A DNA stretch of 64,000 bases from Spirochaetes bacterium ADurb.Bin133 (GCA_002070605.1 MWDO01000003.1:11853-75852); one strand, 5' to 3'; shown: positions 7,172 to 47,425, numbered from the stretch's first letter. Notes: generated by a model not told the origin, from the letters alone. Translations and numbers: made by a program.

Positions 7172-7363
7172 CCTATCGGTTTTTTGGAAATTGACACATA
7201 TGGGTCTCATAACCGCCGCCGCGCTCCCCGATGAAAATTCGACGCATATGGAGCTATATGCGCCGCGCGACAATTATCATATAAAAATTGAACGCGCATG
7301 CGTCAATTTTATCTTTAGCGCCATATGTGTCAATTTTGTTTCGTCCCCCAAAAAACCGATAGG
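7172..7363. repeat. MITE-like modular repeat, complete copy
   Basis: Perfect 16-bp terminal inverted repeats CCTATCGGTTTTTTGG (7172-7187) / CCAAAAAACCGATAGG (7348-7363) enclosing four CATATG-type units; near-identical inverted copy at 27460-27676. Confidence 0.9.
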
Positions 7364-7387
7364 GATACATTTACCTTATTATTTTTC

Positions 7388-7436
7388 TTGACTCAGTTAC
7401 AAAGAAGTTGTATTATTTAGTTAGTCTTAGCTAACA
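7388..7436 (+). promoter_or_regulatory. sigma70 promoter plus palindromic operator (TetR-like)
   Basis: TTGACT-17-TATTAT followed by TTAGTTAG-N6-CTAAC; the same operator occurs at 27381-27401. Confidence 0.65.
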
Positions 7437-7458
7437 TAAAGCCAAGGAGATATATACA

Positions 7459-7684
7459 ATGGGAATTATAAAAAAAAATTTTCAGTCATACGTGTAAGCC
7501 GGAGGGCTTTCTTGGAAAAATGATGCTAAACAGAATGAATGCAGGACACGCAAAAATTATCGACGGCATGAAATGTTATGCAATAGAGGAAATCGAAGCG
7601 GCGCTGAGGAATGCAGGCTTTTCAGAGGTTGAATCCGAACATCATCATGCAAAGCCGTGGATTACGGTTTTGGCAAAGAAGTAA
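7459..7684 (+). pseudogene. Class I SAM methyltransferase, frameshifted and internally deleted
   Basis: AAGGAG RBS. After removing one A from a 9-A run it reads MGIIKKIFSHTCKPEGFLGKMMLNRMNAGHAK joined directly to IIDGMKCY...GFSEVESEHHHAKPWITVLAKK*, i.e. the N- and C-termini of a known MTase family without the SAM-binding core. Confidence 0.7.
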
Positions 7685-7713
7685 ATGGGAAAGATGAATA
7701 CGAGGAAACTTTG

Positions 7714-8331
7714 ATGAAAAAAAATACGCTGTTTTGGGATCGCGTTGCCTTCGTCTACGATATTTTTGTGAATGTCATAAATGTAAAAACGCATCGGCAA
7801 TTGCGCCGCGAGATTTGTGATTTAATTGAGCCGTCCGATGTCGTTTTAGAATGCGCATGCGGAACGGGTATGCTCGCGGAAGTCATTGCGCCTCGATGCG
7901 CAAAATTGATAGCGACGGATTTTTCAACAAAGATGTTACAAAAGACAGAGAAAAAATGCAAGCGATTTACAAATACAACATATACGATAGCTAACATACT
8001 AGATTTAAATTTTGAAACCGGCTCGTTCGACACAGTTGTCGCCGGCAACGTCGTTCACCTGCTCCGCGATCCGCGCGAAGCGTTGCAAGAATTAGACCGC
8101 GTGTGCCGTCCGGGCGGAAAAATTATTATACCGACCTATATCAATAAAGATGAAAACAACAAAGAGAATAAATTTGCAAAAATAGCTGGGAAAATCGGGA
8201 CAGGTTTTAAAAATAAATTTACGTTTGATTCATACGAGCGATTTTTTATTGACGCGGGTTACGACGATGCAAAGTTTATTACGGTCGAGGGAAAAATTCC
8301 CTGCTCAATTGCGGTGATAGAGAAAAAGTAA
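7714..8331 (+). CDS. Class I SAM-dependent methyltransferase
   Basis: VLECACGTG, ATDFS and FDTVVAGNVVH motifs; start moved to ATG 7714 (GAGGA RBS). Confidence 0.9.
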   Translation: MKKNTLFWDRVAFVYDIFVNVINVKTHRQLRREICDLIEPSDVVLECACGTGMLAEVIAPRCAKLIATDFSTKMLQKTEKKCKRFTNTTYTIANILDLNFETGSFDTVVAGNVVHLLRDPREALQELDRVCRPGGKIIIPTYINKDENNKENKFAKIAGKIGTGFKNKFTFDSYERFFIDAGYDDAKFITVEGKIPCSIAVIEKK

Positions 8332-8351
8332 AAAAATAAAGGAGTATTGAT

Positions 8352-9185
8352 ATGAAAAAGATTAAAATAGAAAAAAATACCGTTCAGGAAACGCTTATAA
8401 TTCCTCTGTACGGAAGAAAAATGTGTTCCGAGAAATTCCCCAAACTCTATACGGATATTTTTGCAAAGGAATTATGCGATAGGTTGGACTATGATTTTTC
8501 AGAATTAGAAAAAAAGAATAATTCGTTTTTGTATGAATTTGGTTCTCTTGAAGCTGCGATGCGGCAGTTGGATATGATATGGGAGATTAAAGCGTATTTA
8601 AAAAAGCGCCCCAAAGCAACGATTGTCAATCTCGGCTGCGGCTTGGACGAAACAGGAAAAGCCTGCGATAACGGACTGTGTCGTATCGTAAATGTTGATT
8701 TTCCCGACGTCATATCAGCTCGTAAGCAATTAATTACTGAACAGGAACGAGAAAAAAATATTGCCTGCGATTTAAAAGATTATTCGTGGATGGATGAAGT
8801 CGACGGTTCTAACGGAGTTATTTTTTTTGCCGCCGGAGTATTTCATTATTTTAAGATGGACGAAGTAAAGTCTTTGGCGTTAGAACTTTCAAAAAGATAT
8901 TCGGGGGGACGCTTAGTTTTTGACAGCGTAGGCAAGCTCGGTTTAAAACTGATGATGGCAACGGCATTAAAGAACATGGGTATTAACAATGTAGACGGTT
9001 TATTTTACGTAAATAATCCAAAAAAAGAACTAAATTGGTCGGAAAGAATTAAGGTTACTTCAAAAGGCTATATGCTGGGATATTACGATATGAAAAGTCC
9101 GGGTATTCGTTTTTCACATCGCCTGCTTGCAAAAATGGCAGATAAAATAATAAAGATGGCGATAAACAAAATGGAATTTGAATAA
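8352..9185 (+). CDS. LCM/TcmP-like O-methyltransferase
   Basis: VQETLIIPLYGR, IVNLGCGLD, NVDFPDV and FFAAGVFHYF. Confidence 0.9.
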   Translation: MKKIKIEKNTVQETLIIPLYGRKMCSEKFPKLYTDIFAKELCDRLDYDFSELEKKNNSFLYEFGSLEAAMRQLDMIWEIKAYLKKRPKATIVNLGCGLDETGKACDNGLCRIVNVDFPDVISARKQLITEQEREKNIACDLKDYSWMDEVDGSNGVIFFAAGVFHYFKMDEVKSLALELSKRYSGGRLVFDSVGKLGLKLMMATALKNMGINNVDGLFYVNNPKKELNWSERIKVTSKGYMLGYYDMKSPGIRFSHRLLAKMADKIIKMAINKMEFE

Positions 9186-9238
9186 AGGAAAAAAAACCAT
9201 GTTCGATTGCGGCGATAGAGAGACAAGGAGAAAATAAA

Positions 9239-13035: not shown

Positions 13036-13139
13036 GCAATATGCGTCGAATTTTTATCGAGGCGCGGCAATTATGTAGCGCATATGTGTCATTTTAATTT
13101 TAACGCCATATGCGTCGAATTTCCCAAAAAACCGGCGGG
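13036..13139. repeat. Modular repeat cluster (partial, one terminal motif)
   Basis: Three reverse CATATG(C/T)GTC units ending in CCAAAAAACCGGCGGG (13124-13139), between convergent genes. Confidence 0.8.
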
Positions 13140-13156
13140 CGCTTCTGCGTCTAATA

Positions 13157-14739: not shown

Positions 14740-14761
14740 ATTATTTTCCTACTTTTTTGCG

Positions 14762-14894
14762 CCCGTCGGTTTTTAATTTACTAATTAAAAATATTTTTTC
14801 CATATGCGTCGAATTTTTATTCTTAACATCATATGTGTCGAATTTTCTCCTTAACGTCATATGTGTCATTTTTCTCCTCCAAAAAACTAATGGG
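14762..14894. repeat. MITE-like modular repeat
   Basis: CCCGTCGGTTTTT ... CCAAAAAACTAATGGG ends enclosing three ~28-bp CATATG units; the right end overlaps the radical SAM stop codon. Confidence 0.85.
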
Positions 14895-15837
14895 GCGTCT
14901 TTTTTTTATTCGTTAGCGCAATAAAATTTTTTCCTTCGACCGTTTCAACTTGCGCTTCTTTTTCTTCCAGCAACTTATTGGCAAGCTTCGTCGCCTCGTT
15001 TCTGTTTATTTGTAGCCCGCTCGCTATATCGTCGATCGAACAGGGGCGGCGGCGCAACAGGTTTATTACGTCGAATTTGTCTACGACATTATCGCTCTCA
15101 ATTTTAGGTTGAAATTTATATATAATTTCAACGTCTTTATGTTTAAAAAAAGTTTTATATCTATTCATCTCTTCGGTTGTCGGCGCTTTAGCGTAACTTT
15201 CGGCGGGAGGTCTATCCACGCTGTTCAACTGAACCTTATCGACTCTCATTTTATTGACAATCTGAGCTATAATATCGATTTTGCCGTCGTTCATCGCCGT
15301 ATCTTTCAATAAAAAAACTTCGAGCCATATTTTGTTTTTAAAACCATGACTAAATTCAATCAATCCCTCTATTATTTTCTCGCGCGACAACTGTTTTTCA
15401 GGTCTGTTTACTTTTTGAAAACTATCGTCGTCCCAAAAATCTAGCGAAGGTTTAACCAGATCGGCGTTCTTTATATCGTCGCGTACTTTCTCGTCCCACA
15501 AAAGCGAGCCGTTGGTAAGTATCGCCGCGGGTATATCGGTAACGCTTTTTATAAAATCAATAAGTTCGCCTAACTTCGAATAAAGCGTCGGCTCGCCGGA
15601 ACCGGCGATTGTTATATAATCGATCTTGATATTCTCCTTTAACTTTTCGGTTAATTCGCGCTTAATATCTTCCAGCGGTATATACTCTTTTCTTTCGACG
15701 GTCTTATTGGTAGTTCTTCCAAGTTCGCAATAAACGCAATCAAAACTACAGGTTTTGAAAGGTATAACGTCCGCTCCAAGAGAAAGCCCAAGACGTCTCG
15801 ACGGTACGGGTCCGAATATATATTTGTAATTACTCAT
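14887..15837 (-). CDS. Radical SAM protein (COG0731-like) with a C-terminal HTH-like extension
   Basis: FGPVPSRRLG.SLG, CSFDCVYC, GSGEPTL and LTNGSLL. Confidence 0.9.
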   Translation of the reverse strand: MSNYKYIFGPVPSRRLGLSLGADVIPFKTCSFDCVYCELGRTTNKTVERKEYIPLEDIKRELTEKLKENIKIDYITIAGSGEPTLYSKLGELIDFIKSVTDIPAAILTNGSLLWDEKVRDDIKNADLVKPSLDFWDDDSFQKVNRPEKQLSREKIIEGLIEFSHGFKNKIWLEVFLLKDTAMNDGKIDIIAQIVNKMRVDKVQLNSVDRPPAESYAKAPTTEEMNRYKTFFKHKDVEIIYKFQPKIESDNVVDKFDVINLLRRRPCSIDDIASGLQINRNEATKLANKLLEEKEAQVETVEGKNFIALTNKKKTPH

Positions 15838-15926: not shown

Positions 15927-17279
15927 TTATTTTTTTCTTAAAAAAATTATATTTTCTTTTAGCATTGTATCGCATAATACCCCTTTTTCATTTGTCGGAG
16001 AATTTTTGGAGGGCATTCTTTTATTGATTATATTCCTATACAAAATTTTCTCAACATTAAAACCTATTTTTCCCGCTAATTCGCTTATTATCAAATCTGT
16101 TCTCAAAAACACATTCTTTACGGTTCTATTGCCGGTAACTAAAACAAAATATTTGTCTCTTTTTAAATAGTAATACGCATTAATTAGAGTTTTGTTTAAA
16201 TCAATATAAAACGATAAGACGTCTTTTGCTCTTTTATTACAATTATTTTTTATTTGTTCAAGTTGTTGTTTTAACATTGGCGAATAATCGAGCGTCTCGT
16301 CGTCTAAATTAATATTATTTTTTCCGCCCAGTAGATTACCGTCAAGCGAATAAATATTATTATCATTATTCAACCATTGCCACGAAAGTCGCGAAAATTG
16401 ACCATACGCTACGGTAGTTCTTGAATCTCCATAAGGAGGAGAAGTCAATATAAAGTCAACCGACTCTTCGTCTATATTCTGTCTAATTCTCGAATCGCCA
16501 TATATTATCTTAATATTCGTTTTATTTAATTTTACATTACTATAAAATTTAATCATTAAATTAATATTTCTATTGCATACTTTATTATATTCATCAAAAA
16601 CATTTGGATTAAAACTATCATTGATTTTATTTTTGTCTCTATGTAATTTAAATCCGCCGTGATTTGTCAAAGATACTCTTCTTATAACCTCGCTTAGACA
16701 TAAGAGGAAAAAGTTTTTGATATTTTCATTTTCAATATCCGTTATGATTGATTTTAGTTTTGACAAATGCGTAATTACGTCTTTTTTAAACCAAAATTCA
16801 ATATTATGAAATTTTTGATTTTCAAAATTATTATCGCTCCTAAAATACATATTCTCAATTTCATAGAATTTATTCTTTAATAAAACCGGATCAATTGGGG
16901 TAACTTTTACTTTTGCCATAAAACAAGCAAATGGATTCAATTCTATTCCAATCGCTTTTTTTCTATTTAGAAGTAAACATTCGATTAATGTCGTCCCCGA
17001 ACCGGAAAAATTATCCAGAACCACGCTATTTTCGTTCGTAAATACTCTCAATATTTTCCTTGCAAGTTGAGGGATAAATTTTGCCGGATATTGATGAAAA
17101 CCGTGAGAATAGATATTTGGATTAAAATCTTTAAAATCCCATTCGGAATACCAATCTTTAATATCGCTAGCGGTATAATAATTTTCGTCTTCTATATTTT
17201 CATTATACCGCGTATTAACGACGTCAAACAAATTTGCCGAAGAATAATTGATATTCATTTTTTTTAATTCAGCGATCAT
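15927..17279 (-). CDS. alpha-class N4-cytosine DNA methyltransferase (M.MvaI-like)
   Basis: HQYPAKFIP, LDNFSGSGTT (motif I) before TSPPYGDSRTTVAYGQFSRLS (motif IV), and KRMPSKNSPTN. Confidence 0.9.
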   Translation of the reverse strand: MIAELKKMNINYSSANLFDVVNTRYNENIEDENYYTASDIKDWYSEWDFKDFNPNIYSHGFHQYPAKFIPQLARKILRVFTNENSVVLDNFSGSGTTLIECLLLNRKKAIGIELNPFACFMAKVKVTPIDPVLLKNKFYEIENMYFRSDNNFENQKFHNIEFWFKKDVITHLSKLKSIITDIENENIKNFFLLCLSEVIRRVSLTNHGGFKLHRDKNKINDSFNPNVFDEYNKVCNRNINLMIKFYSNVKLNKTNIKIIYGDSRIRQNIDEESVDFILTSPPYGDSRTTVAYGQFSRLSWQWLNNDNNIYSLDGNLLGGKNNINLDDETLDYSPMLKQQLEQIKNNCNKRAKDVLSFYIDLNKTLINAYYYLKRDKYFVLVTGNRTVKNVFLRTDLIISELAGKIGFNVEKILYRNIINKRMPSKNSPTNEKGVLCDTMLKENIIFLRKK

Positions 17280-18068
17280 TTACAGTTCCTCATTTACAAA
17301 ATCGATTATCTCGGAGAGAGGAGAAATAAAATTTTCATTTACCGGTTTTGAAATAAAAGCTTTGTCAAAAAATTTGAACATTCCGCGATGTTGAGGATTA
17401 TTAATTTCATTGTAAAAATTTACAGTGGCAAAACAAACCATTGGCATGTCGTTTGTTTCATAAGAAATGTTATATTTATCTTTGATAGTATTTTCAGAAG
17501 TCGCAATTTCCATTAGCAATTTCCATTTATAAGTTTGCCCCGCTCGTTCTCTTAACGACGTTTTTAACGATAAGATAATACATTTATCTACATCGTCGTT
17601 TTCCTTTTTGGTGTAGATTATTAAATCTGCGTCGGGTTTTTGCGTTTCTCCGTCGACATTTATTGTCGCTAATTTATCAAAGTTTTTGACTTTCGATTTT
17701 TTACTTGTTATAAAAATATTTGGTTTTATATTTCCAATTATTTTATTTTTTAAAAAAATATAAACAATCGAATTTGAAAATACGTTTCCAGCAATAGACT
17801 TTATTGATTGACTAATATCGGTAATTTCGCCTTTAATTTTTCTATCATTTAAAAGTTTTCGAACGTCTTGCTCTGCGCCTTTTAAAATTTCGTATAAATG
17901 ATTAAATACTTCTCTCCAAGAATTTTTAGTAATTCCATTTTTTATTACAAATTCATTAATACCTTTCAATGTAGGTAACATATAATCTGTTTTTTCAATC
18001 TTTACTAGGTCTCTATTTTCTTCTTTGTTCAACTCATAATTCAAAATAACAATCCTTATATCTACCAA
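17280..18068 (-). CDS. Type II restriction endonuclease, BsaWI/CCGG-family
   Basis: PD..D....K-TSLRER motif typical of CC-recognising enzymes; adjacent to the m4C MTase; start uncertain (TTG 18068 or ATG near 17981). Confidence 0.8.
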   Translation of the reverse strand: MVDIRIVILNYELNKEENRDLVKIEKTDYMLPTLKGINEFVIKNGITKNSWREVFNHLYEILKGAEQDVRKLLNDRKIKGEITDISQSIKSIAGNVFSNSIVYIFLKNKIIGNIKPNIFITSKKSKVKNFDKLATINVDGETQKPDADLIIYTKKENDDVDKCIILSLKTSLRERAGQTYKWKLLMEIATSENTIKDKYNISYETNDMPMVCFATVNFYNEINNPQHRGMFKFFDKAFISKPVNENFISPLSEIIDFVNEEL

Positions 18069-19909
18069 ACATTAACATTCTCTTTTATCTTTTGCCAAAT
18101 ATCTTTAATTTCATCGGTTATCTCGCTATCTGTAAACTCAATTACCGAAAGCCCTTTAATCTGCGCTTTTGTAACGGACTTATCGTATCCGATTTTTCCC
18201 AGAAAATCGGCGCCGTACTCTTTTGCAATGGCGATTATATCATTTGCTTTATCAATGTTCAAATCAAATTTATTAACGACTACTCCGGATTTTATACCGA
18301 AGAATTTGATAACGTCGAGAACCCGTTTTAAATCGTGGACTCCCGATACGGTCGGCTCGGTTACGATTACGGCGTAATCCGTTCCGGTTATCGAAGCTAT
18401 TACCGGACAACCGGTCCCCGGAGAGCCGTCTATGATAGAAAGATTTATATTATTTTTCGCCGCAAGTTGATTCTTTTTGTTCCTTATTAAGGTTACAAGT
18501 TTACCGGAGTTCTCTTCGGCGGCGCCGAGTTTCGCATGGCTCATCGGTCCAAAACGGGTATCGGATAAAAACCATTCTCCATTTATAGCGGTCTTAAATT
18601 TGATCGAGCCGGTCGGGCAAACTATAGCGCAGGCGGCGCAACCTTCGCAAGATTTTTTATCTACCATATAAACCGCGCAGCCCTCTTCATAATTTTTGAT
18701 AACGGCGCCGAAACGACATGTCTCGCGGCATCGACCGCAAGAGATACATTTTACGTTATCGATTTGCGCGACCTTGCCGCCTGAAAAAAGTCCCGACTCG
18801 ACGATCCGGGGTTTTAGTATCAAATGAAGGTCGGCGGCGTCCACGTCGCAGTCGGATATGGCGATACTTTTTTCGAGAGCGCAGAAACTTGCGACAATCG
18901 AGGTTTTACCCGTACCCCCTTTGCCGCTTATAACGACTACCTCTTTTTGATTTGGATCGACTTCCATTTTTTCTTTAACTGAACATTCCGCCTTATCGAG
19001 CGCGTCGGCTTTATCTGTTTCAATTTCAGCGCTTCTCGCTTTTTTACCGGTCGTATTATCCTTTTTTGACTGATGAAGAATTTTTTTCGCTATTTCTAAA
19101 AAAACATCGTTATAACGGTCGTTTTCGTCTACTATTAAATCCCCTCTTGAGTAAACTTCCGCTATCAATCGATCGTCGGGAATCTCGGCGATTATATCTA
19201 GCGACTCCTTCGAGCAGTAATCCCTAAGTTCGCTATCCGGATATTCGGCTCTGTTTACCAAAACGACCGGCTCTATTCCAAGTTCGCGACACATATCTAC
19301 CGCCAATTTGAGATCGTTGACCCCAAACGGCGTCGGATCGGTAACGAGTATTGTTAAGTCCGAATCCCTAACCGTTTCGACGACGGGACAAGAGGTCCCG
19401 GGCGGCGAGTCGACGATATTAACTCCTTCGCCGATATTTTTTTTGACGCTCTTTATTAGTCGAGGCGTCATTCCCCCCTCGCCCGTTTCGAGAAGACCGT
19501 AATGAATGTCGATATTTCCGGATTTGCCGCGCCTAACAACCCCTATTTTACGATCTTCTTCGACAATAGCGTCTTTAGGACAAACCAAAGCGCAAGCGCC
19601 GCATATGTGGCAAAGATTCTTAAATATTAATATCCTATCCTTAACCTTTGCCATAGCGTTGTATTTACACGCTTCGACGCATTTGACGCATATGTTGCAT
19701 TTTTCTGCGTCGACTCCGACGGGCGATAATAAATTTATAGTCTCTTCCTTGAGCGTATCGGGCTTTAGAAATAGATGCCCGTTCGGCTCCTCGACGTCGC
19801 AATCGAGATAAGTTACCTGTTTGCCCATTTTTTCGAGGACTCTGGCAATGTTTGTAGAAACAAACGTCTTCCCGGTTCCCCCTTTTCCGCTTGAAATCGC
19901 TATATTCAT
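18062..19909 (-). CDS. Fused tandem MinD-family P-loop ATPase / 2x[4Fe-4S] ferredoxin protein (two COG1149-type units)
   Basis: Two SGKGGTGKT Walker A motifs, two DCDV(E/D) motifs, four CxxCxxCxxxC ferredoxin motifs and two D(S/G)xPGT.CPV motifs in one ORF. Confidence 0.9.
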   Translation of the reverse strand: MNIAISSGKGGTGKTFVSTNIARVLEKMGKQVTYLDCDVEEPNGHLFLKPDTLKEETINLLSPVGVDAEKCNICVKCVEACKYNAMAKVKDRILIFKNLCHICGACALVCPKDAIVEEDRKIGVVRRGKSGNIDIHYGLLETGEGGMTPRLIKSVKKNIGEGVNIVDSPPGTSCPVVETVRDSDLTILVTDPTPFGVNDLKLAVDMCRELGIEPVVLVNRAEYPDSELRDYCSKESLDIIAEIPDDRLIAEVYSRGDLIVDENDRYNDVFLEIAKKILHQSKKDNTTGKKARSAEIETDKADALDKAECSVKEKMEVDPNQKEVVVISGKGGTGKTSIVASFCALEKSIAISDCDVDAADLHLILKPRIVESGLFSGGKVAQIDNVKCISCGRCRETCRFGAVIKNYEEGCAVYMVDKKSCEGCAACAIVCPTGSIKFKTAINGEWFLSDTRFGPMSHAKLGAAEENSGKLVTLIRNKKNQLAAKNNINLSIIDGSPGTGCPVIASITGTDYAVIVTEPTVSGVHDLKRVLDVIKFFGIKSGVVVNKFDLNIDKANDIIAIAKEYGADFLGKIGYDKSVTKAQIKGLSVIEFTDSEITDEIKDIWQKIKENVNVW

Positions 19910-20040
19910 TTTAATTCCTTAATTATCGTTGAATTCTCATCCTCTCCCGATTCTTTTTTTAATCCAATGATTTTTGCTACCGTTTCTCTGAAGAGTTCTT
20001 CCGTAATCCTAAAAATCTGAATTCCGCTAATTTTTTTCAT
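19906..20040 (-). CDS. Possible 44-aa small protein coupled to the ATPase
   Basis: GGAG RBS; MKKISGIQIFRITEELFRETVAKIIGLKKESGEDENSTIIKELK*; its stop overlaps the ATPase ATG (ATGA). Confidence 0.35.
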   Translation of the reverse strand: MKKISGIQIFRITEELFRETVAKIIGLKKESGEDENSTIIKELK

Positions 20041-20120
20041 AAAATTTGCGCTCCTTGCAACTATATTACAAGGTTTAATTATACATTTTTTTCAAATAAA
20101 AATAAAGCGCTTTTTGTAAT

Positions 20121-20287
20121 CCGTCAGTTTTTTTTGCGGGGGACGGGGAAATTGACGTATGCGACGTTAAGAATAAAATTGACACATATGCGTTAGATAA
20201 AAAAAATCGACGCATATAGCGTTAGGAATAAATTGACACATATGCGTCGGCTCTAAATTATTTGTTATCCTCCAAAAAACTGACGGG
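20121..20287. repeat. MITE-like modular repeat
   Basis: CCGTCAGTTTTTT ... CCAAAAAACTGACGGG ends; four tandem ~27-bp AAATTGACACATATGCG units. Confidence 0.9.
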
Positions 20288-20301
20288 ATGCGCGCTTTTT
20301 T

Positions 20302-20667
20302 TTATTTCATTCCGCTATGAGGCTCCGCCGTCGCTTTGTCGGTACTATTGTATTCTCCTTTTTTGAATTTCTCTATAGATTCTCTAACGGTTCCCGACGC
20401 GCCGGTAAATACCTTTATCCCCGCGGCGTTTAATACCTGAAACGCGTTCGGTCCGACGGCGCCGGTAAGCACGGCTTCGCATTTTTTATCCGCTACTAAC
20501 TGCCCCGATTGGATTCCGGCTCCGCCGCCGCTCTGTCCGGCGGGATTATTGATCGCTTCGTAAGACATTAAGTCCGTATCGACTATTATAAAATAGTCGC
20601 ATCTGCCGAATCTGGGATCGACTTTTGATTCCAGATCGCTTCCATAAGACGTTACGCATAATTTCAT
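20302..20667 (-). CDS. NifB/NifX-family FeMo-cofactor-binding domain protein
   Basis: VDPRFGRCDYF, GAGIQSGQ and GAVGPNAF.VL. Confidence 0.9.
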   Translation of the reverse strand: MKLCVTSYGSDLESKVDPRFGRCDYFIIVDTDLMSYEAINNPAGQSGGGAGIQSGQLVADKKCEAVLTGAVGPNAFQVLNAAGIKVFTGASGTVRESIEKFKKGEYNSTDKATAEPHSGMK

Positions 20668-20747
20668 CTTTGACTCCTTTTCTTTGTTTTATCTACATCT
20701 TCATAAAAGACGATTTGCTTCGCCTCTTATTATCTCTTTCGCGTAAT

Positions 20748-20848
20748 CCGTCAGTTTTTTGGGGCGAGGAAATGAATAACGCGGGTCTGTCTCAAAAAAA
20801 TTGACACATATGGAACAAATATTTTCTATTCCTCAAAAAACTGACGGG
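20748..20848. repeat. Short MITE-like repeat
   Basis: CCGTCAGTTTTTTG / CAAAAAACTGACGG inverted ends with one TTGACACATATG core. Confidence 0.85.
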
Positions 20849-20882
20849 GTACTCTTCCGCGTATAGCGCGGTTAATTTTTAA

Positions 20883-21284
20883 TTAATGGCGATGTCCATG
20901 TTTTCCGCCGCCCTCGCATCCGCCGACCTTGTCTAGGCCGTAACCGCGACCTCCTCCGGGAGAACATAACGATTTGCCGCCGGAAAGAGTTCCGGTCAGT
21001 AAGCGCTCTACAATTGCGTCGATTTTCCCGGAAACTCCCATATATTGTTTGATATTATACTGAGTAAAAAGATTTTGAGCGTTTACGCCCATTCCGCCGG
21101 CGACGATACATTCCGCCCCTTTTTCATGGAAAAACTGCGGCAGGTATCCCGGGCTGTGTCCCGGATTGTCAATAACCTCTTTTGAAATTACCTTACCGTC
21201 TTGTATCTCTACAATTGTAAATTGAGGGCATCGTCCAAAATGCGCCGAAACATATTCGCCGTCCGTTGAAATTACCGCTTTCAT
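20883..21284 (-). CDS. NifB/NifX-family protein with Gly/His-rich tail
   Basis: VSAHFGRCPQF, HSPG.LP and AGGMG; tail GGGRGYG...CEGGGKHGHRH; start moved to ATG 21284 (AGGAGA RBS). Confidence 0.9.
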   Translation of the reverse strand: MKAVISTDGEYVSAHFGRCPQFTIVEIQDGKVISKEVIDNPGHSPGYLPQFFHEKGAECIVAGGMGVNAQNLFTQYNIKQYMGVSGKIDAIVERLLTGTLSGGKSLCSPGGGRGYGLDKVGGCEGGGKHGHRH

Positions 21285-21336
21285 AAATTTTCTCCTATCT
21301 CTTAAATTCCGTCGACTAAAGTCTCCGTCTTTTTCA

Positions 21337-21558
21337 TTATTTTTCAATTTTCTCAGAAACATCGTCTACTATATAATATTTCCCTTTCTTGTCTGAAATT
21401 TGCTTTCTTTTAAAGAAGGGTAGTTTATTGATTAGCGTCTTAATAACGCTATTTTCTTTTGAAAGATCGCTTATTACAAAATAACCGACTGCTCCGAGAA
21501 TTCCCGAAATAGCGCTCGCTTTTCCCATGCCAAATCTTAGTCTTTTACGCATACGCAT
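21337..21558 (-). CDS. Small hypothetical protein with one hydrophobic segment
   Basis: AGGAG RBS, in-operon position, 73 aa. Confidence 0.6.
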   Translation of the reverse strand: MRMRKRLRFGMGKASAISGILGAVGYFVISDLSKENSVIKTLINKLPFFKRKQISDKKGKYYIVDDVSEKIEK

Positions 21559-21576
21559 AGTTTTCTCCTATTTTAG

Positions 21577-21604
21577 ACAACGGCGGGCTTCGGCCTACCG
21601 TTGT
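21577..21604. terminator. GC-rich stem-loop within the operon
   Basis: ACAACGGCGGGC-TTCG-GCCTACCGTTGT immediately after the DUF5320 stop. Confidence 0.55.
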
Positions 21605-21611
21605 TTAAAAA

Positions 21612-21932
21612 CTACTCCTGATTTTCGAGTTCTTTGATTCTTTTATTGATGTTTTCAATACTTTGATTCATATATCGAGCTTGATTTTTCAAAACCTCAA
21701 GTTCGTCTTCTTTCGATAACTCGCGATTCATACCGCTCGCTTGATTATATCTAGCCCACCTCGGCAAACCGGTAGCGTTATAGATATTTCTACGACCTCT
21801 ACCCCCTCCAAAAAAACCTCTTCCAACCCCAAAATTAGCGTATCCCGACGTAGCGAAGCCCGAACAAAAGCCTCTCGCTCCCCCGGTCATACTTCCCAGT
21901 CCCATAGGACCCGTTCCGTCTCTTCCAGACAT
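21612..21932 (-). CDS. DUF5320-family Gly/Arg-rich protein
   Basis: M.G.DGTGPMG.G.MTG..RGFC.G, GRGFFGGGRGRR and C-terminal coiled coil (E.E.LK.QA..M...IE.I.KRI.EL). Confidence 0.85.
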   Translation of the reverse strand: MSGRDGTGPMGLGSMTGGARGFCSGFATSGYANFGVGRGFFGGGRGRRNIYNATGLPRWARYNQASGMNRELSKEDELEVLKNQARYMNQSIENINKRIKELENQE

Positions 21933-22044
21933 GATAAACCTCCTTAAAATTGTAAAATTTGAACAGCGAATTTAAGCCCGCCGTTCTATATCAGACGTAT
22001 ATATTCGTCTGATAAAATAGCTCGAACTATTTTTCAATTCTATA

Positions 22045-22059
22045 TGATAATTATTTTCA
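22045..22059. promoter_or_regulatory. Fur box upstream of the DUF5320/NifX operon
   Basis: TGATAAT-T-ATTTTCA, 1 mismatch to the 7-1-7 consensus TGATAAT-N-ATTATCA. Confidence 0.7.
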
Positions 22060-22107
22060 TTTAGGTTTTAAAAATAATGCGCAATTATGTTTAAATAGAC
22101 GTCTAAA

Positions 22108-22587
22108 TTATATTTTTTTTCCCCTTCCATTTTTAACGTAGCAACCTCCGCATAATCCGTGAAATTGTATTATATGATGTTCGATCTTAAAATTCCGCTT
22201 TTTTTCCAACGTTTTTTCTATTTTGGTTATCAATTCTATCTCTTCGTCGATAAAATCGGAGTAATCCTCTATTCTTCCGCAACCATCGCAAACAAAATGA
22301 TGATGATGAGTTTTATTACCGTGATTTTCCGACAATTCGTATCGGGACTTTCCGTCCCCTATCTCCAATTTTACAACAATCCCCAATCTTACCAATATCT
22401 CAAGCGTCCTGTAAACCGTCGTCAGTCCAATTTCGGGATACTCTTTCGACGCTATCGCGTATATCTCTTCGGGACTTAGATGTTCGTCGTTTGATTCAAG
22501 AACTTCAAGGACGGCCTCTCTTCCCGGCGTGCATTTATATCCGCATTGTCTTAATCTATGTCCCCACTGTCCGCAATTTCTCTTCAC
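22108..22587 (-). CDS. fur: Fur-family transcriptional repressor
   Basis: T..R..VL, GLTTVYRTL, HHHHFVCDGC and CGGC. Confidence 0.9.
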   Translation of the reverse strand: MKRNCGQWGHRLRQCGYKCTPGREAVLEVLESNDEHLSPEEIYAIASKEYPEIGLTTVYRTLEILVRLGIVVKLEIGDGKSRYELSENHGNKTHHHHFVCDGCGRIEDYSDFIDEEIELITKIEKTLEKKRNFKIEHHIIQFHGLCGGCYVKNGRGKKI

Positions 22588-22600
22588 ATCTCTACCTAAT

Positions 22601-22649
22601 TGATAATCACTTTCATTTAGAATATAATATAAAGTTTTATGTAAGTCAA
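22601..22649 (-). promoter_or_regulatory. fur promoter with overlapping autoregulatory Fur box
   Basis: Minus-strand TTGACT-17-TATATT; box TGATAATCACTTTCA (22601-22615) shares 18/20 nt with the box at 22045. Confidence 0.7.
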
Positions 22650-22706
22650 GCGTTATTTTTTAAAATTTGCTCCCCGTGTCATTCAAAAAACCGACGTATT
22701 CTATAT

Positions 22707-22735
22707 TTGACAAATTGCTACTTTTTTTGTATATT
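22707..22735 (+). promoter_or_regulatory. ileS sigma70 promoter
   Basis: TTGACA-17-TATATT. Confidence 0.75.
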
Positions 22736-22771
22736 GGCTCAAAAATTAATATTCGCAAATCGAGGTATGGT

Positions 22772-25894: not shown

Positions 25895-25981
25895 CAGTCT
25901 TTTGCGCGACGGCGACAATCCAATTTCAGAATTCGATTGATTTGGCGCTATCTTAAATCAGATTGTTTTCATCTTTTATTT

Positions 25982-27380: not shown

Positions 27381-27435
27381 TTAGTTAGCCTGATCTAACT
27401 AGTATAGATTTTAATATTAATATTTTTTTTGTCAA
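27381..27435 (-). promoter_or_regulatory. sigma70 promoter plus TAGTTAG-N6-CTAACTA operator
   Basis: Minus-strand TTGACA-16-TAAAAT followed by a 7-6-7 inverted repeat similar to 7417-7436. Confidence 0.6.
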
Positions 27436-27459
27436 GTACTATTAGTTTTTACGCTGTAC

Positions 27460-27786: not shown

Positions 27787-27807
27787 CGCGGGTTAGCGCG
27801 TTTTTTC

Positions 27808-28390: not shown

Positions 28391-28408
28391 GAAGTTGTGT
28401 TATATTAT

Positions 28409-28470
28409 TATATTCAAAACGGGAATTCCCGTTTTTTTATTAATAGCGCCCCATAGATGTGTCAAATTTA
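28409..28470. repeat. Palindrome module and core unit of the repeat family
   Basis: 28409-28448 is identical (40/40) to 27713-27752; followed by a reverse GACACATCTATG unit. Confidence 0.9.
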
Positions 28471-36762: not shown

Positions 36763-36810
36763 TAAATTTAATTGAAAGTTAGAGAAATACCGAGATTTCT
36801 ATTAGTATGT

Positions 36811-36848
36811 TAATATAACGACGGCGAAGGACCGCCGTTGTTATATTA
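36811..36848. terminator. Intrinsic terminator-like hairpin after ppdK
   Basis: TAATATAACGACGGCG / CGCCGTTGTTATATTA 16-bp stem. Confidence 0.65.
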
Positions 36849-37499: not shown

Positions 37500-38366
37500 A
37501 TGAAAAGTTATCAATCGTATTCTAAAATAAATCTGTTTCTAAACGTAACCGGAAGGTATAAGAGCGGTTATCACTCTATAAAGAGTCTATTTTGCCGCGC
37601 TACGTTGTCGGATAGCATATCCTATTCTCTAAACGATACAAATAAAATCAAAATTATAGACAAAAAAAATATATTGCCGGAGAATAATCTTTTAAAAACG
37701 GCGGCAGATAAAATTATTTCGAGTTTGAACGGTAGAATTCCTTTTGGCATAGATTTTACAGTCGAGAAAAAAATACCTATAGGCGGCGGGCTTGGCGGCG
37801 GCTCTTCTAACGCCGCTTCCGTTTTAAAAATTTTAAATAAAGAGTGGCGGCTAAATTTCGGGGTTGAAAAATTAAAAAAAATCGCGCGACAAATCGGAGC
37901 GGACGTCCCCTTTTTTATCGAGGGGGGGACGCAAAAAGTTTTCGGCGTCGGGGAGATAGTCAAATCAATAAAAACGGGAATTCCCGTTTTTTATTTAATT
38001 CTGGTTTTCCCGGAAATTCAGGTATCCACTCCCGCCGCTTATAAATTGATTGACGACAATAATATGGCTTGCGAATCTTACGAAGAACGAAAAATGTTTA
38101 AAAAATTAATCGAAGGGTACCGCTCTAACGATTACAAAAAAATAATTTCTAATGTTTATAATAAATTTGAATATCCCGTATTTGCTCAAAACAAAATATT
38201 ATCTGATATAAAAAACGACGTTCTTGACAGCGGAGCCGACGCGTCGGTTATGTCTGGATCCGGCTCGACGATAATCGGCATATACGAGACTTATGAAAAA
38301 AGAAAAACGGGAATCGAGCGTTTACAATCTTACGGATATAACGTCGAGCCGGTAGAAATATTTTAG
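37500..38366 (+). CDS. ispE: 4-diphosphocytidyl-2-C-methyl-D-erythritol kinase
   Basis: KINLFL, GYHSI, KKIPIGGGLGGGSSNAA, GADVPFF and MSGSGST. Confidence 0.95.
   Translation: MKSYQSYSKINLFLNVTGRYKSGYHSIKSLFCRATLSDSISYSLNDTNKIKIIDKKNILPENNLLKTAADKIISSLNGRIPFGIDFTVEKKIPIGGGLGGGSSNAASVLKILNKEWRLNFGVEKLKKIARQIGADVPFFIEGGTQKVFGVGEIVKSIKTGIPVFYLILVFPEIQVSTPAAYKLIDDNNMACESYEERKMFKKLIEGYRSNDYKKIISNVYNKFEYPVFAQNKILSDIKNDVLDSGADASVMSGSGSTIIGIYETYEKRKTGIERLQSYGYNVEPVEIF
37970..37991. repeat. Repeat-family palindrome inside ispE
   Basis: AAAAACGGGAATTCCCGTTTTT (22-bp perfect palindrome) encoding KTGIPVF. Confidence 0.85.
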
Positions 38367-38384
38367 AAAAATTGGACGCATATG

Positions 38385-38760
38385 CGTCAAAAAAAACAAC
38401 AACATATGCGTTAAAAAAACAAATTGACACATATGGAGCTGTAGGCCGCGCCCTGATAAAACCGGGAATTCCCGTTTTGAATATATTAAAATACTAACAC
38501 CCTCTTCATACCGGGACCTTATCGGGCTCGCGTCGCTCCCCGACGAATAATTTGACACATATGGAGCTATACGCGCGGGACGCGAAATCGAGGGTTCAGT
38601 TCTACACATACCGCCGCGGCTACTCCCCGATAAAAATTTGACACATATGAGCTACATAACTGCCGCGCCGCTCCCCCAATAGAATTTGACACATATGGAG
38701 CTATACGCCGCGCGACTATTGAACCATTGATTTTCCCTCGTATACGCGCGGGGCGCGATA
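38385..38760. repeat. Large modular repeat cluster between ispE and parC
   Basis: About six TTGACACATATG units with GC-rich GGAGCTA..GCCGCGCCGCTCCCCGA linkers and a palindrome module at ~38461. Confidence 0.9.
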
Positions 38761-44194: not shown

Positions 44195-44265
44195 ATTACT
44201 TCCGTTTACTGTGATTACTAAATTATCGGAATATTTATAAAAAAATAGAATTATATGAACTGTTT

Positions 44266-44430
44266 TTTTAGTATATTCAAAACGGGAATTCCCGTTTTGA
44301 ATATACTAAAACACTAAAGCGTTCTTCATACTGGGACCTTATCGGAGCTCGCGTCGCTCCCCGATGTAATTTGACACATATGGAGCTGCATACGTCGCGC
44401 CGCTCCCTGAGAGAATTTGACACATCTATG
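44266..44430. repeat. Repeat cluster with a perfect 46-bp palindrome
   Basis: TTTTAGTATATTCAAAACGGGAA|TTCCCGTTTTGAATATACTAAAA (44266-44311), linker and two core units. Confidence 0.92.
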
Positions 44431-44804
44431 CCGAGAAAATATTGCTAGCCGGCGGGCATGGTTATATAATGAAAACAGAAATTCTTGAAAAAATGATAGA
44501 AGCGATAAGGATCGTATTTAACGGCGGTATATATGTCAGCGAAAATATTAAAGACCGGCTGTTAATTAAAAAATATTCTCAAAAAACCGGTTTAATAAAA
44601 AATGTTGAAGATACGCTGTCTCAAAGAGAATACGAAATTTTTAAATACGTCGGCGCGGGTTATTCCCCAAGCGAAATATCCAATCTTTTGAATTTATCCG
44701 TCTCGAGCGTAAATACTTACAAAAAAAGAATTCAAGATAAACTAAATATAAACGATTCTTGCGAGCTTAAAAAATACGCTATTAAATATTTTAAAAGTTT
44801 GTGA
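44421..44804 (+). pseudogene. NarL/FixJ-family response regulator lacking most of the receiver domain
   Basis: IYAEKILLAGGHGYIMK (end of REC) plus LSQREYEI...LSVSSVNTYKKRI (LuxR HTH); in-frame TGA at 44418 inside the repeat. Confidence 0.75.
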
Positions 44805-44817: not shown

Positions 44818-44890
44818 AATTTTGACGCATAGACGCCGCGCCCCGATGAATAAATTGACACATATGGAGTAACATACTCGCCGCGAATTA
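44818..44890. repeat. Repeat cluster
   Basis: Two TTGAC(A/G)CAT units with CCGCGCCCCGATGAATAAA linker. Confidence 0.8.
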
Positions 44891-44896: not shown

Positions 44897-45151
44897 TTAT
44901 TTATACGCATCTTTTCTAAAAACAACTCTTGATACTACTACTTTTTTTTCTTTTTCTTCAATGTAAAATAATATTCGATAATTCCCAGATCTTAATCTAT
45001 ATTCATTATCTCTATCTACTAATTTTTTAACATTCTGATTTCGAGGATTTTCTTTTAGAGTTTCAATATTTTTCAAAATGACCGAATAAAAAGGTTCATT
45101 AATATCTTCTAAATCTTTAACAGCGCTTTTTTTCAACGCAATATTATACAA
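44897..45151 (-). CDS. RelE/ParE-family toxin
   Basis: KSAVKDL, L..NPR...KKL, YRLRSGNYRILF and R.DAY. Confidence 0.88.
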   Translation of the reverse strand: MYNIALKKSAVKDLEDINEPFYSVILKNIETLKENPRNQNVKKLVDRDNEYRLRSGNYRILFYIEEKEKKVVVSRVVFRKDAYK

Positions 45152-45338
45152 TTTTTTTTAACCTTTTATAGTCGTCAAAATTAACTTCATCTTCGTCTAT
45201 TGTTTTTTTAATTAATTCTGAATCTATCTTATCTTCAATTATTTCTATCAGTTTAAGAAAATCATTATAATCAATTATTACTTTCGTTTTATTCCCCTGA
45301 TCGTCGACTATATATTCTCTTGTTAATGATAAATTCAT
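45144..45338 (-). CDS. Cognate antitoxin (RelB-like, 64 aa)
   Basis: YIVDDQG.KT.VII....F..L.E..ED; acidic; overlaps the toxin start. Confidence 0.8.
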   Translation of the reverse strand: MNLSLTREYIVDDQGNKTKVIIDYNDFLKLIEIIEDKIDSELIKKTIDEDEVNFDDYKRLKKIV

Positions 45339-45370
45339 AATTTTTCCCTTACGCGCTTAATATTATTATT

Positions 45371-45399
45371 AATTTAATATTTTTAAACAAAAATATCAA
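45371..45399 (-). promoter_or_regulatory. TA operon promoter
   Basis: Minus-strand TTGATA-17-TAAATT. Confidence 0.55.
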
Positions 45400-45419
45400 T
45401 AAAATTTACTCCAAAAATG

Positions 45420-45590
45420 GTAATTCGTTAGTTTTTTGAGAATTTAAAACATCTGTCCCATATTCGCCGCGCCGCTCCCCCGATAGAAATTTGACACATA
45501 TGTGTCAAAATAAAATTCGACACATATGGGTATCCACCGACCCCTCGATTTCGCATCCCGCGGCGCGTAGTCGAGGGTTTGAAATACGTC
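45420..45590. repeat. Repeat cluster with degenerate terminal motif
   Basis: GTAATTCGTTAGTTTTTTGA (compare GTAATCCGTCAGTTTTTTGG at 20743); perfect palindrome TTTGACACATATGTGTCAAA at 45490-45509. Confidence 0.85.
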
Positions 45591-45635
45591 TACTGAATCG
45601 TATTTATCCATGGTACAGATTTAATTTATTTACCT

Positions 45636-45948
45636 TTAAAATTTTTTCAAAATATTATCATAATCTGCATGAGAACCTATCCAAAACCAAATGATTTCAT
45701 CTTTATTTGCAAAAACGCCTAAGGCTCTCCACCCTATGCCAACTCTAATAGAATATTGTTTTTCCGGCTTTATAATTTGAGACGGCTTCTTCAGCCATAC
45801 TTTCTAATATGTCTTGAGACTCTATAAATAAATTATCTCATTTTAATTCCGACTCAATCTCATCAAGTATCTGTTGAGCCAATAGATTTTGAATTGAATC
45901 GGGCAAATTAGAACTTTTTTTAAAAGCTTTTTCTAATAATTTTGTCAT
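45636..45948 (-). pseudogene. Inactivated type II TA pair (antitoxin with nonsense codon plus C-terminal half of a RelE-like toxin)
   Basis: MTKLLEKAFKKSSNLPDSIQNLLAQQILDEIESELK*DNLF..SQDILESMAEEA....AGKT (TGA at 45840-45838); in another frame YSIRVGIGWRALG...IIWFWIGSHADYD* with no toxin N-terminus; absent from the ORF track. Confidence 0.8.
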
Positions 45949-46056
45949 TATTACCGCCTATCGTCTAATAAATTTAAACAATTAAGACAAATTTGTCAAT
46001 AATTATTTAATCGTAAAATAGCCGCATGTCATTCAAAAAAACAAAGATTATCGTTG

Positions 46057-46304
46057 ACTTTTACCATAGATGTCAAAAAATAAATTTGACACATATGGAT
46101 CTGCATAGTCGCCGCGCCGCTCCCCGATGAAAATTGACACATATGCGCCGCTTCCTGATAAAAGCGGGAATTCCCGTTTTGAATATACTAAAACACTAAA
46201 GCGCCCTTCATGCCAAGACCTTATCGGGACTTGCGGCGCTCCCTGATATAAAATGACACATATGTGTTAAAATTCCTATCGCCCTAAAAAACCTATAGAG
46301 GTAC
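46057..46304. repeat. Repeat cluster with palindrome module and degenerate terminal motif
   Basis: Three core units, GCGGGAATTCCCGTTTTGAATATACTAAAAC and CTAAAAAACCTATAGAGGTAC (46284-46304). Confidence 0.88.
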
Positions 46305-46323
46305 GATTCAAGAATATTTTTAT

Positions 46324-46352
46324 TTGACTTTATTAATACCAATATGTATATT
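46324..46352 (+). promoter_or_regulatory. TA operon promoter
   Basis: TTGACT-17-TATATT. Confidence 0.7.
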
Positions 46353-46378
46353 ATGTATAAGTTTGAGGAGGATTAATT

Positions 46379-46606
46379 ATGAATAATTATTTAGATAGAA
46401 TTGAAACAAATCCAAATATCATGCTTGGTAAACCAATAATAAAAGGAACAAGAATTACTGTTGAATTGATTATAAAAAAATTATCAGAAGGTATGTCTTA
46501 TGACGATATTAAAAAAGCTTATCCTATTTTAAAAGACGAAGATATTTTTGCAGTTTTATCTTACTCCTACGAGGTTATTTCTAAGGAGGAGATGCTTGCT
46601 ATATAA
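46379..46606 (+). CDS. DUF433 antitoxin
   Basis: RIETNPNIMLGKPIIKGTRITVE.I...YP.L..EDI.A.L.Y. Confidence 0.92.
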   Translation: MNNYLDRIETNPNIMLGKPIIKGTRITVELIIKKLSEGMSYDDIKKAYPILKDEDIFAVLSYSYEVISKEEMLAI

Positions 46607-46946
46607 AATTGTAGCGGATGAAAGCGTTGACTACAGAATTATAAAAAAACTGACAAAAACTGGAAACCAAGTTATATCTATTCATGAAAAGTATTCCGGA
46701 ATAACCGATAAGGAAGTAATCAAAATAGCGATAGAAAATAATGCAATAATAATAACCGAAGATAAAGATTTTGGCGAATTGGTATTCTCGCATAAAGAAA
46801 AATCAACAGGAGTAATATTATTAAGATATACTGCGATAGATTATGATAAAATTTCGCAAGTAGCGCTAAATGTTATTGAAAATTACAATTTATATAATAA
46901 ATTTTGCGTTCTTACGATAAATAAAATAAGAATAAGAGAAATATAA
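46596..46946 (+). CDS. DUF5615 PIN-like toxin (VapC45-like)
   Basis: ADESV, ITD.EVI..A, IITEDKDFG.L and GVILLR; start moved to TTG 46596 after AAGGAGGA. Confidence 0.88.
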   Translation: MLYKIVADESVDYRIIKKLTKTGNQVISIHEKYSGITDKEVIKIAIENNAIIITEDKDFGELVFSHKEKSTGVILLRYTAIDYDKISQVALNVIENYNLYNKFCVLTINKIRIREI

Positions 46947-47059
46947 ATATTATTTAATCTTTTTTAAGGTTGTAAATATTTTAGAATAGACGCCTATACA
47001 TATCGCTTATTGTCAACATATCTGGCGAGGGAAACTCGAGAACTATTATATCGAGAGTT

Positions 47060-47425
47060 ACAGCCCCGATGAATAAATTGACACATATGATACCGACAAA
47101 CATCGGGGTGCGCTCTACTGTTTTAAAAATTTGGCACATATGGAGCCGCATAACCGCCACGCCGCTTCCCGATGGAAATTCGACGCATATGAAGCTACAT
47201 GCGCCGCTATGCCCCCCGACGAATAATTTGACACATACGGAGCTATACTCGTCGCGCTCCCCGATAGAAATTTGACGTATATGGGGTGTTTTGTTCTTAA
47301 CGGCGCAAGCCCCGATATGAGCATATTTAGTATTTTAGTATATTCAAAACGGGAATTCCCGCTTTTATCGGGGCGCGACAATTGTCGCATAGAAATTGAC
47401 ACATATGGAGCTACATGCGTCGCTA
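47060..47425. repeat. Large repeat cluster
   Basis: Six core units at ~45-50 bp period and a palindrome module (47327-47372) inverted relative to 46150-46200. Confidence 0.9.

Follow-up and report, generated by a model that had tools for sequence, protein, structure and literature searches.

The window analysed here is a 64,000-nucleotide stretch of Spirochaetes bacterium ADurb.Bin133 (GCA_002070605.1, MWDO01000003.1:11853-75852), chromosomal DNA of about 38% G+C that carries ordinary housekeeping genes (ileS, ppdK, parC/gyrA-like, ispE and fur). Scattered along it between positions 7172 and 47425 are 13 clusters of a modular intergenic repeat family. Our analysis concerns the origin of these clusters and their relation to a longer element with the same ends, present in related metagenome contigs, whose only gene is an open reading frame (ORF) of 171 amino acids (aa).

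A preliminary description made from this stretch had divided the clusters into a terminal inverted motif, short repeat units, a palindrome and linkers, and our counts bear out these motifs where it placed them, all far above chance expectation. With at most 2 mismatches, the unit AAATTSGACRCATATG matches 25 times in the window (0.14 expected) and the end motif CCRTCRGTTTTTTGG 12 times (0.6 expected); the palindrome module AAAACGGGAATTCCCGTTTT matches seven times with at most 3 mismatches (0.05 expected), and the invariant core GACRCATATG occurs in 34 exact copies (0.03 expected), every one intergenic except that at 19685. A repeat finder independently recovers these families. The inverted end runs 5 nt further outward than had been described (GTAAT, GTATC or GTACC), the palindrome is indeed perfect over 46 bp in the copy at 44266-44311, and the linker said to follow it at 38482, 44312 and 46194 corresponds to our repeat family D3 (38459-38562, 44279-44382 and 46161-46264). 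The copies at 7172 and 27460, reported to differ by one unit, differ by exactly one unit of 28 bp and lie in opposite orientation, and the two eroded traces, at 22676-22698 and near 58755, are both visible. The description had matched the motifs to no recognised family, and neither did we: scans of the window for Rfam families and tRNAs gave no match, and no described family of miniature inverted-repeat transposable elements (MITEs) or repetitive extragenic palindromic (REP) sequences matching the motifs was found in the literature. The members of the family in the window are these:

7167-7368, no strand: E1, a palindromic MITE of 202 bp with ends GTAAT-CCTATCGGTTTTTTGG and CCAAAAAACCGATAGG-GATAC, a perfect 16-nt inverted end motif and 3 inward-facing core units; no target duplication is visible at its flanks.
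13036-13143, minus strand: E2, a one-ended fragment with 3 minus-strand core units and the right end CCCAAAAAACCGGCGG-GCGCT; the left end is missing.
14758-14898, minus strand: E3, with GC-type outer termini (GCGC-CCGTCGGTTTTTAAT and CCAAAAAACTAATGG-GGCGT), three 28-bp units and a possible flank CTTTTTT.
20116-20291, plus strand: E4, a MITE of 176 bp composed of a left arm, a leader remnant and a right end; the left arm has 3 exact or 1-mismatch core units and a fourth, degenerate unit (GACGTATGCG).
20743-20852, plus strand: E5, a MITE of 110 bp, GTAATCCGTCAG...CTGACGGGGTAC, with one core unit.
22676-22698, minus strand: eroded end-motif trace in the divergent intergenic region of fur and ileS.
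27455-27681, no strand: E6, a palindromic MITE that mirrors E1 in inverted orientation and contains one 28-bp unit more; the inverted repeat I1 recorded for it has 123 nt at 94% complementarity.
27704-27790, minus strand: E7, a palindrome module, one core unit and the right end CCAAAAAACTGACGG-GCGCG.
28400-28470, no strand: palindrome module and degenerate core (family D5), directly downstream of a YafQ/HigB-like toxin ORF.
37971-37999, no strand: palindrome module copy (family D4) within the coding sequence of ispE (GHMP kinase), in frame, encoding KTGIPVFYL.
38369-38760, plus strand: array lacking inverted ends, with a full palindrome GACGCATATGCGTC, 4 further exact cores at a GC-rich spacing of about 48 bp, a palindrome module with the shared linker, and a CCCTCGATTT hairpin module.
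44263-44433, plus strand: the perfect 46-bp palindrome (44266-44311), the shared linker and 2 units, in the flgH / luxR-type divergent region (families D3 and D8).
44818-44890, plus strand: single GC-linker unit (family D1), downstream of the LuxR-type gene.
45420-45560, plus strand: degenerate left end GTAAT-TCGTTAGTTTTTTGA, a full palindrome TTTGACACATATGTGTCAAA, one more unit and a CCCTCGATTT hairpin module.
46057-46303, plus strand: 3 units, a palindrome module, the shared linker and a degenerate right end CCTAAAAAACCTATAG-AGGTA.
47060-47425, plus strand: the largest array, with 3 exact and three 1-mismatch cores spaced about 45-50 bp apart, an inverted palindrome module and a GCGACAATTGTCGC module.
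58755-58812, no strand: eroded trace, AAAAATTCGACGCGG.

Members of this family insert with target duplications of 8-9 bp. A scan of metagenome contigs for a core unit followed by an end motif brought up 112 loci with a combined length of 894 kb (non-redundant: about 700 kb), and these related contigs hold 772 exact cores, about 0.9 per kb, along with a linker module built on the palindrome GCGACAATTGTCGC. The preliminary description had named copies outside the window, empty sites and target duplications as the evidence to look for, and all three were found. One locus (L064) represents a sister strain with 98.9% identity across window positions 19782-27527 and lacks exactly 20743-20852, the element E5. 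It retains a single 8-bp target copy (...TTATTATC-TCTTCCGC-GTATAG...), where the filled site reads TCTTTCGC-(GTAATCCGTCAG...CTGACGGGGTAC)-TCTTCCGC, with the 8-bp duplication TCTTTCGC / TCTTCCGC. E5 is also missing from locus L167, again with one target copy, and over all contigs carrying this site the empty haplotype occurs on 12 and the filled one on 7, so that the insertion is polymorphic between strains about 99% identical. E4 has a 9-bp duplication (GCGCTTTTT, at 20107-20115 and 20292-20300).

The same pattern extends across the related contigs, where about 80 inverted-end pairs of 80-250 bp occur in the 894 kb. Of 79 non-redundant inverted-end pairs, 34 lie between direct repeats; shuffling of the left and right flanks lowers this number to 1.2 ± 1.0. 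When 30 elements were anchored on the outer GTA...TAC, 13 showed a 9-bp and 8 an 8-bp duplication (at most 1 mismatch); these 21 compare with a chance expectation of about 0.5, and other lengths give nothing. Most copies with intact ends thus lie between 8-9 bp repeats. The full inverted end has a consensus of approximately GTAWY-CCGTCRGTTTTTTGG(GG), 20-24 bp at both ends, in which the outer positions are G (0.70), T (0.68) and A (0.71) followed by A or T, with GTAAT and GTATC the commonest forms. Unit number varies separately: at the same site close strains differ by 88 bp (two units) and by 53 bp, with core repeats at the boundaries, which shows that units are lost or gained through deletion or duplication between direct core repeats and supports the unit expansion or contraction proposed earlier.

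These results bear on the suggestion, made in the preliminary description, that the clusters resemble REP elements moved by a RAYT transposase. Under such a scheme they would be REP/BIME-like elements (REPINs) mobilised by a single-copy RAYT (Y1/HUH), their hairpins serving as terminators or mRNA stabilisers. The modular mosaic, the short palindromes GACRCATATGYGTC at about 76 sites and the folding of E1 into a single long hairpin (z = -9.3) would suit it, as would a related metagenome-assembled genome (MAG) with tandem full palindromes. However, inverted ends of 20 bp and duplications of 8-9 bp are foreign to the Y1 mechanism, no RAYT was seen, Rfam gave no match, and the direct arrays at 38.4 kb (z = -1.5) and 47.1 kb (z = -1.2) fold as single strands no better than shuffled sequence. 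We regard this scheme as highly improbable. The folding result also led us to drop a structured-RNA reading of the direct arrays.

The MAG in question, JAGOCL01 (Spirochaetes bacterium Go_SlDig_bin_318; L024 1-120 and L038 660-780), is a digester Spirochaetes assembly in which tandem full palindromes TTAGACRCATATGYGTCT follow TTTTTGG in intergenic DNA, another packaging of the core motif. It is the sole lead among the matches listed from a reference-genome scan with the pattern CATATGYGTC-N(8-38)-CATATGYGTC, a pattern too unspecific in itself, the listed matches being mostly chance. A further locus, L023 (MWCQ01000044.1, Firmicutes bacterium ADurb.Bin193, 2004-2716), repeats the two-core pattern ten times at a period of about 94 bp and looks like an unrelated tandem or CRISPR-like array.

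An all-against-all comparison of the loci revealed a segment of 650-720 bp, present in many copies at 86-93% identity and always adjoining the end motif. It forms the bulk of a parent element measuring 700-890 bp between inverted-end motifs, of which the window holds no copy. In the parent, the left inverted end is followed by 1-5 core units and then by a conserved leader, which is about 110 bp long and includes a ribosome-binding site; next comes the 171-aa ORF, separated from the right end by a spacer of 15-25 bp. The core units are built on AAWTT-GACRCATATG and often terminate in a full palindrome, for example TTGACGCATATGTGTCAA. E5 is this parent minus leader and ORF, and its junction, ...ACAAATATTT / TCTATTCC-CCAAAAAAC, matches the parent sequence flanking those two parts. 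E4 is likewise a cassette from which the ORF is missing and keeps a piece of the leader (TAAATTATTTGTTAT, TAAATTATTTGT), and in E1 and E6 one left arm meets another head to head.

Neither the window nor the 10 kb on either side of it contains the ORF. The window apparently lies on DAONXL010000001.1 of GCA_035413805.1, and its PPDK protein is found, identical, on anaerobic-digester and sludge metagenome contigs and in several MAGs labelled 'Spirochaetota bacterium'. Because the accession series that hold this exact PPDK (HQF77507, HOS55568, HPK61750 and HOF01562) also contain many ORF copies, at least 11 of them in the series HQF76871 to HQF79081 with PLO40_ locus tags, we assign the ORF to the window's organism. 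Many ORF copies are cut at contig ends, as expected of assemblies that break at a repeat. Some pairs of ORF-bearing elements share one flank only (L151 and L162, the copy at 4362; L124 and L076), which suggests recombination between copies in different strains.

We propose, with a probability of roughly 0.7, that the clusters in the window all go back to a single ORF-bearing transposable element family of an uncultured anaerobic-digester Spirochaetota bacterium: some are copies, others have lost internal parts, and others again are fragments left by decay or recombination. In this proposal a DDE-type transposase supplied in trans would carry out the cut-and-join step, and the palindrome AAAACGGGAATTCCCGTTTT and the GC-rich linkers would be accessory modules travelling with the units. 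The preliminary description had envisaged a lineage-specific non-autonomous element mobilised in trans: its mobility is supported by the empty site, the duplications and the outside copies, and mobilisation in trans is retained as conjecture.

Comparison with known systems places the family between several of them. MITE families are common, and their parents normally encode a transposase. Like Correia/NEMIS, MITEAba12 and Nezha, the small elements described here are 80-250 bp long, intergenic, non-coding and of high copy number, have terminal inverted repeats and a target duplication of fixed length, and arose when a longer element lost its interior; the empty site of E5 is a further MITE trait. 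Unlike them, they derive from a longer element that encodes no recognisable transposase, contain a variable array of 10-bp cores with interchangeable linkers, and in many copies consist of two left arms. The 700-890 bp elements resemble mobile insertion cassettes (MIC231 of Bacillus cereus; TIMEs and tISs) in that insertion sequence (IS)-type ends surround a passenger gene that is no transposase and mobilisation is presumed to occur in trans; they differ in that a single passenger gene recurs in dozens of diverged copies, each subject to purifying selection and situated behind arrays of the motif that also fills the MITEs. Pneumococcal BOX, enterobacterial BIMEs and Neisseria dRS3/NIME, offered earlier as analogues, are apt in architecture, being module mosaics with variable internal units between terminal modules, but share no sequence similarity with the family, which in addition has target duplications, an empty site and an ORF-bearing parent. 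Readings as integron attC sites, CRISPR or iterons were rejected, because the clusters lie dispersed between housekeeping genes, have related linkers and lack associated genes.

The product of the ORF has no match in Pfam, NCBIfam, PDB sequences, or plasmid and phage collections. Relatives occur only in Spirochaetota, as about 150 clusters at 74-100% identity and a handful at 20-42%. One remote homologue, P0134, matches RHH_3 over two stretches at 24.4 bits (cut-off 21.6), and others give weak RHH_3, RHH_5 and RHH_7 matches at the N-terminus and in the middle. With remote homologues in the alignment, AlphaFold2 yields a model (pLDDT 70, pTM 0.66) in which a beta-alpha-alpha arrangement occurs twice (strands 5-13 and 72-80) and is followed by a C-terminal helical region. 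In a Foldseek comparison with the PDB it comes closest to three TraY chains from the F relaxosome, with a probability of 0.98, a target TM-score of 0.64 and an E-value of about 0.1; VirC2 and DndE come next. F TraY is a monomer that holds a whole ribbon-helix-helix dimer fold, a single-chain pseudo-dimer; three molecules line up as a train on direct and inverted sites and bend the DNA (PMC12117103). The 171-aa protein is accordingly predicted to be a single-chain, TraY-like tandem ribbon-helix-helix protein and, judged from these predictions, is very probably a DNA-binding protein.

The likeness to TraY and VirC2 covers the predicted fold and the arrays of short direct and inverted sites beside a DNA end or processing site. 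The 171-aa protein differs from both in sequence, where no similarity is detectable, and in possessing about 50 additional residues in a C-terminal helical region; an oriT is likewise missing. None of the ORF loci has a relaxase or a plasmid setting, which argues against placing the protein among TraY-type relaxosome accessories.

The arrangement of the cores points to a link between motif and protein. A core unit stands at a fixed site about 115-125 bp upstream of the ATG in all ORF copies, and is kept there even in a lineage with a 74%-identical protein, degenerate inverted ends and no nearby MITE arrays; around the distant homologues, which are single genes, such repeats are missing. Where neighbouring cores share a strand, they are 26-28, 36-39 or 45-48 bp apart, and the middle one of these three classes came to light in the wider contig set. 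Successive classes are separated by about one helical turn, and each has its own related linkers. Full palindromes GACRCATATGYGTC account for 152 of 630 distinct contexts counted over both strands, about a quarter. We infer that the 171-aa protein binds the core. Its operator would then be the promoter-proximal copy, a row of protein molecules would assemble on the arrays beside the element end, as happens with TraY at oriT, and the MITEs would spread core sites through intergenic regions.

Purifying selection on the ORF is strong. The 894 kb contain at least 28 full-length copies, all free of stop codons, and among 20 copies of exactly 513 nt the median pairwise dN/dS is 0.11 (mean dS 0.47). 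Comparison of orthologous copies, which share their flanks between different strains, gives synonymous and non-synonymous differences of 11 versus 6 and 6 versus 3 (dN/dS about 0.13). From this selection, together with the rarity of target duplications around them, we conclude that the ORF-bearing elements are old, mostly fixed and individually maintained; the MITEs are the recently mobile fraction.

A tentative extension of our proposal, which we hold to be possible though doubtful, is that the cassette represents a novel kind of element, selfish or domesticated, with a single gene for a TraY-like protein; this protein would bind the dispersed arrays, about one core per kb, and be required per copy for mobilisation, retention or control of neighbouring genes. 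The same data could be read as a host system, in which the repeats are dispersed putative sites for paralogous DNA-binding proteins that serve a regulon or organise the nucleoid, mobility is incidental, and the host keeps the clusters to regulate or insulate the genes beside them. Purifying selection on orthologous copies at fixed loci would fit such a system, as would the almost solely intergenic cores in discrete spacing classes, the promoter-proximal core conserved across lineages, and the clusters that often occupy divergent promoter regions (27.3-27.9 kb and 44.2-44.4 kb, for instance). Against it, insertion polymorphism and target duplications show selfish spread, clusters decay (22676 and 58755) and vary between close strains, and many stand at the 3' ends of genes. 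On balance we find a host system of this kind improbable.

A number of observations weigh against the proposed transposable element family, its protein, or the link between them. Target duplications flank only 1-2 of 9 ORF-bearing copies, and copies at different loci have diverged by 7-14%, so that the mobility of these copies themselves is old or unproven; strong selection on every copy is, moreover, unexpected for a mere passenger gene. The 38-47 kb arrays mostly lack inverted ends, and some may have arisen by local duplication rather than insertion. The first AlphaFold2 model, built on a shallow alignment, was poor (pLDDT 43), and the Foldseek E-values (0.1) are weak. A scan of the conserved leader for sigma-70-like promoters gave none above chance, the spacing steps of about 10 bp may reflect linker ancestry rather than helical phasing, and binding of the core by the protein is itself inferential.

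The mobilising enzyme forms part of the same difficulty. In agreement with the preliminary description, which had seen no transposase, none of the window ORFs of at least 90 aa that were scanned contains a transposase or integrase Pfam domain; for those at about 51.5-58.7 kb, the Pfam hits were precomputed ones from a syntenic contig. The 171-aa ORF is the one multicopy coding segment in the related DNA (about 760 kb, non-redundant). A pair of inverted ends separated by 1-5 kb occurs in a single case, which encloses an ordinary membrane-protein gene and no transposase-sized gene. An autonomous MITE parent with a transposase was thus not found in the DNA sampled, namely the window and related sequence of about 1.1 Mb, where the parent with the same ends encodes only the ribbon-helix-helix protein. 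The window has one additional end-motif pair, at 45420 and 46303, whose 884 bp equal the size of an ORF-bearing cassette; a search between the two for a remnant of the 171-aa ORF found no trace, only broken toxin-antitoxin fragments. This interval may represent a cassette that carries another cargo, or a pair of fragments that have nothing to do with each other.

The staggered 8-9 bp duplication and the 20-bp inverted ends nevertheless indicate an enzyme of the DDE type. The target duplications of IS66 range from 8 to 9 bp in the ISfinder table. The hallmarks of IS66 / ISBst12 are inverted repeats of 20-30 bp starting with GTAA and 8-bp target duplications (PMC11946415, PMC12898284). Our elements have ends in that length range with a GTAA-type start and duplications of 8-9 bp, and IS66 / ISBst12 is the best fit to them, an affinity that we offer as a lead only. 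Written for comparison with transposase ends, the end sequence is GTAWYCCGTCRG or GTAWYCCGTCRGTTTTTTGG; after GTAA it reads TCCGTCAG and not GCG as in IS66. TnpA, TnpB and TnpC were not found, no IS with matching ends was identified in the related DNA sampled, and a screen of 1.1 Mb, covering part of the genome, for IS66 TnpC signature motifs gave no match, which is weak evidence. IS256, ISL3, IS1 and ISAs1, families that share duplications of 8-9 bp, are further candidates.

With no transposase found in the DNA searched, the 171-aa protein might itself be the mobility or maintenance factor, marking the ends and recruiting a host nuclease, recombinase or replication-repair machinery, so that the cassette would represent a new type of element in its autonomous form and the MITEs would depend on the protein. 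Its ORF is the sole gene within the inverted ends and the sole multicopy coding sequence. Stop-free copies with a dN/dS of about 0.11 despite a dS of 0.47 are the pattern to be expected if each copy needs its own product, and the putative site arrays border directly on the element end, much as the sites of TraY and VirC2 adjoin a nick site. Yet nothing resembling a catalytic domain appears in the predicted fold, duplications of 8-9 bp imply that a dedicated enzyme makes staggered cuts, the recent movers are the MITEs while the ORF-bearing copies look old and fixed, and the remote homologues are ordinary single-copy genes in repeat-free surroundings. We therefore think it unlikely that the protein plays this part, and retain a DDE-type enzyme acting in trans as the candidate for the cutting and joining.

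The unusual feature of this family is that its sole element-encoded protein is a putative DNA-binding protein of the TraY/VirC2 type, intact in dozens of diverged copies, while the motif that it may bind fills the derived MITEs and many intergenic regions. If the proposed binding is true, bacteria would offer here a clear example of a mobile element that disperses a family of regulators together with their sites; alternatively, the protein would be an end-marking accessory on which a separate enzyme depends. Should the tentative extension above prove correct, the family would amount to a transposon-borne DNA-binding protein with a transposon-dispersed network of sites, and not a passenger in an ordinary MITE family. 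The analysis also yields repeat and paralogue annotation for poorly known digester spirochaetes and explains MAG breaks at these loci.

Several features of the window stand beside the repeat family. The palindrome-module copy in ispE (29 nt, 20 of them exact) coincides with just 2 extra residues relative to E. coli IspE, which excludes a simple insertion; capture of the module from the gene, gene conversion and a tolerated micro-insertion are the options for its origin. Toxin-antitoxin modules are interleaved with the clusters at 27866-28390, where the YafQ/HigB-like toxin occupies 28115-28390, and at 44897-46946. The latter comprises a RelE/ParE-like pair on the minus strand (44897-45338, identified by eye), a broken antitoxin fragment (45838-45948) and a DUF5615 gene with an upstream 75-aa ORF that is DUF433-like by eye (46379-46946), so that 44.8-47.4 kb resembles a small toxin-antitoxin island interrupted by MITE arrays. 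Two N6/N4 DNA methyltransferase genes are present, one of them beside a BsaWI-like restriction endonuclease gene (1617-3827, 15927-17279 and 17280-18068); the repeat core contains CATATG.

Strains also differ outside the family. Between ppdK and a STAS gene, a 44-bp hairpin at 36805-36848 (TTAATATAACGACGGCGAAGGACCGCCGTTGTTATATTAA), unrelated in sequence to the main family and bounded by the direct repeat TATTA, is missing from strain contig L003, which continues with different DNA past window position 37548. At 20006/20007 the window lacks 1,069 bp present in the sister haplotype (L064 7575-8643; L167 2128-3333). The missing segment encodes most of a 401-aa polyferredoxin-type membrane protein, of which a 44-aa remnant is called in the window, and on the contigs examined this deletion accompanies the filled E5 site.

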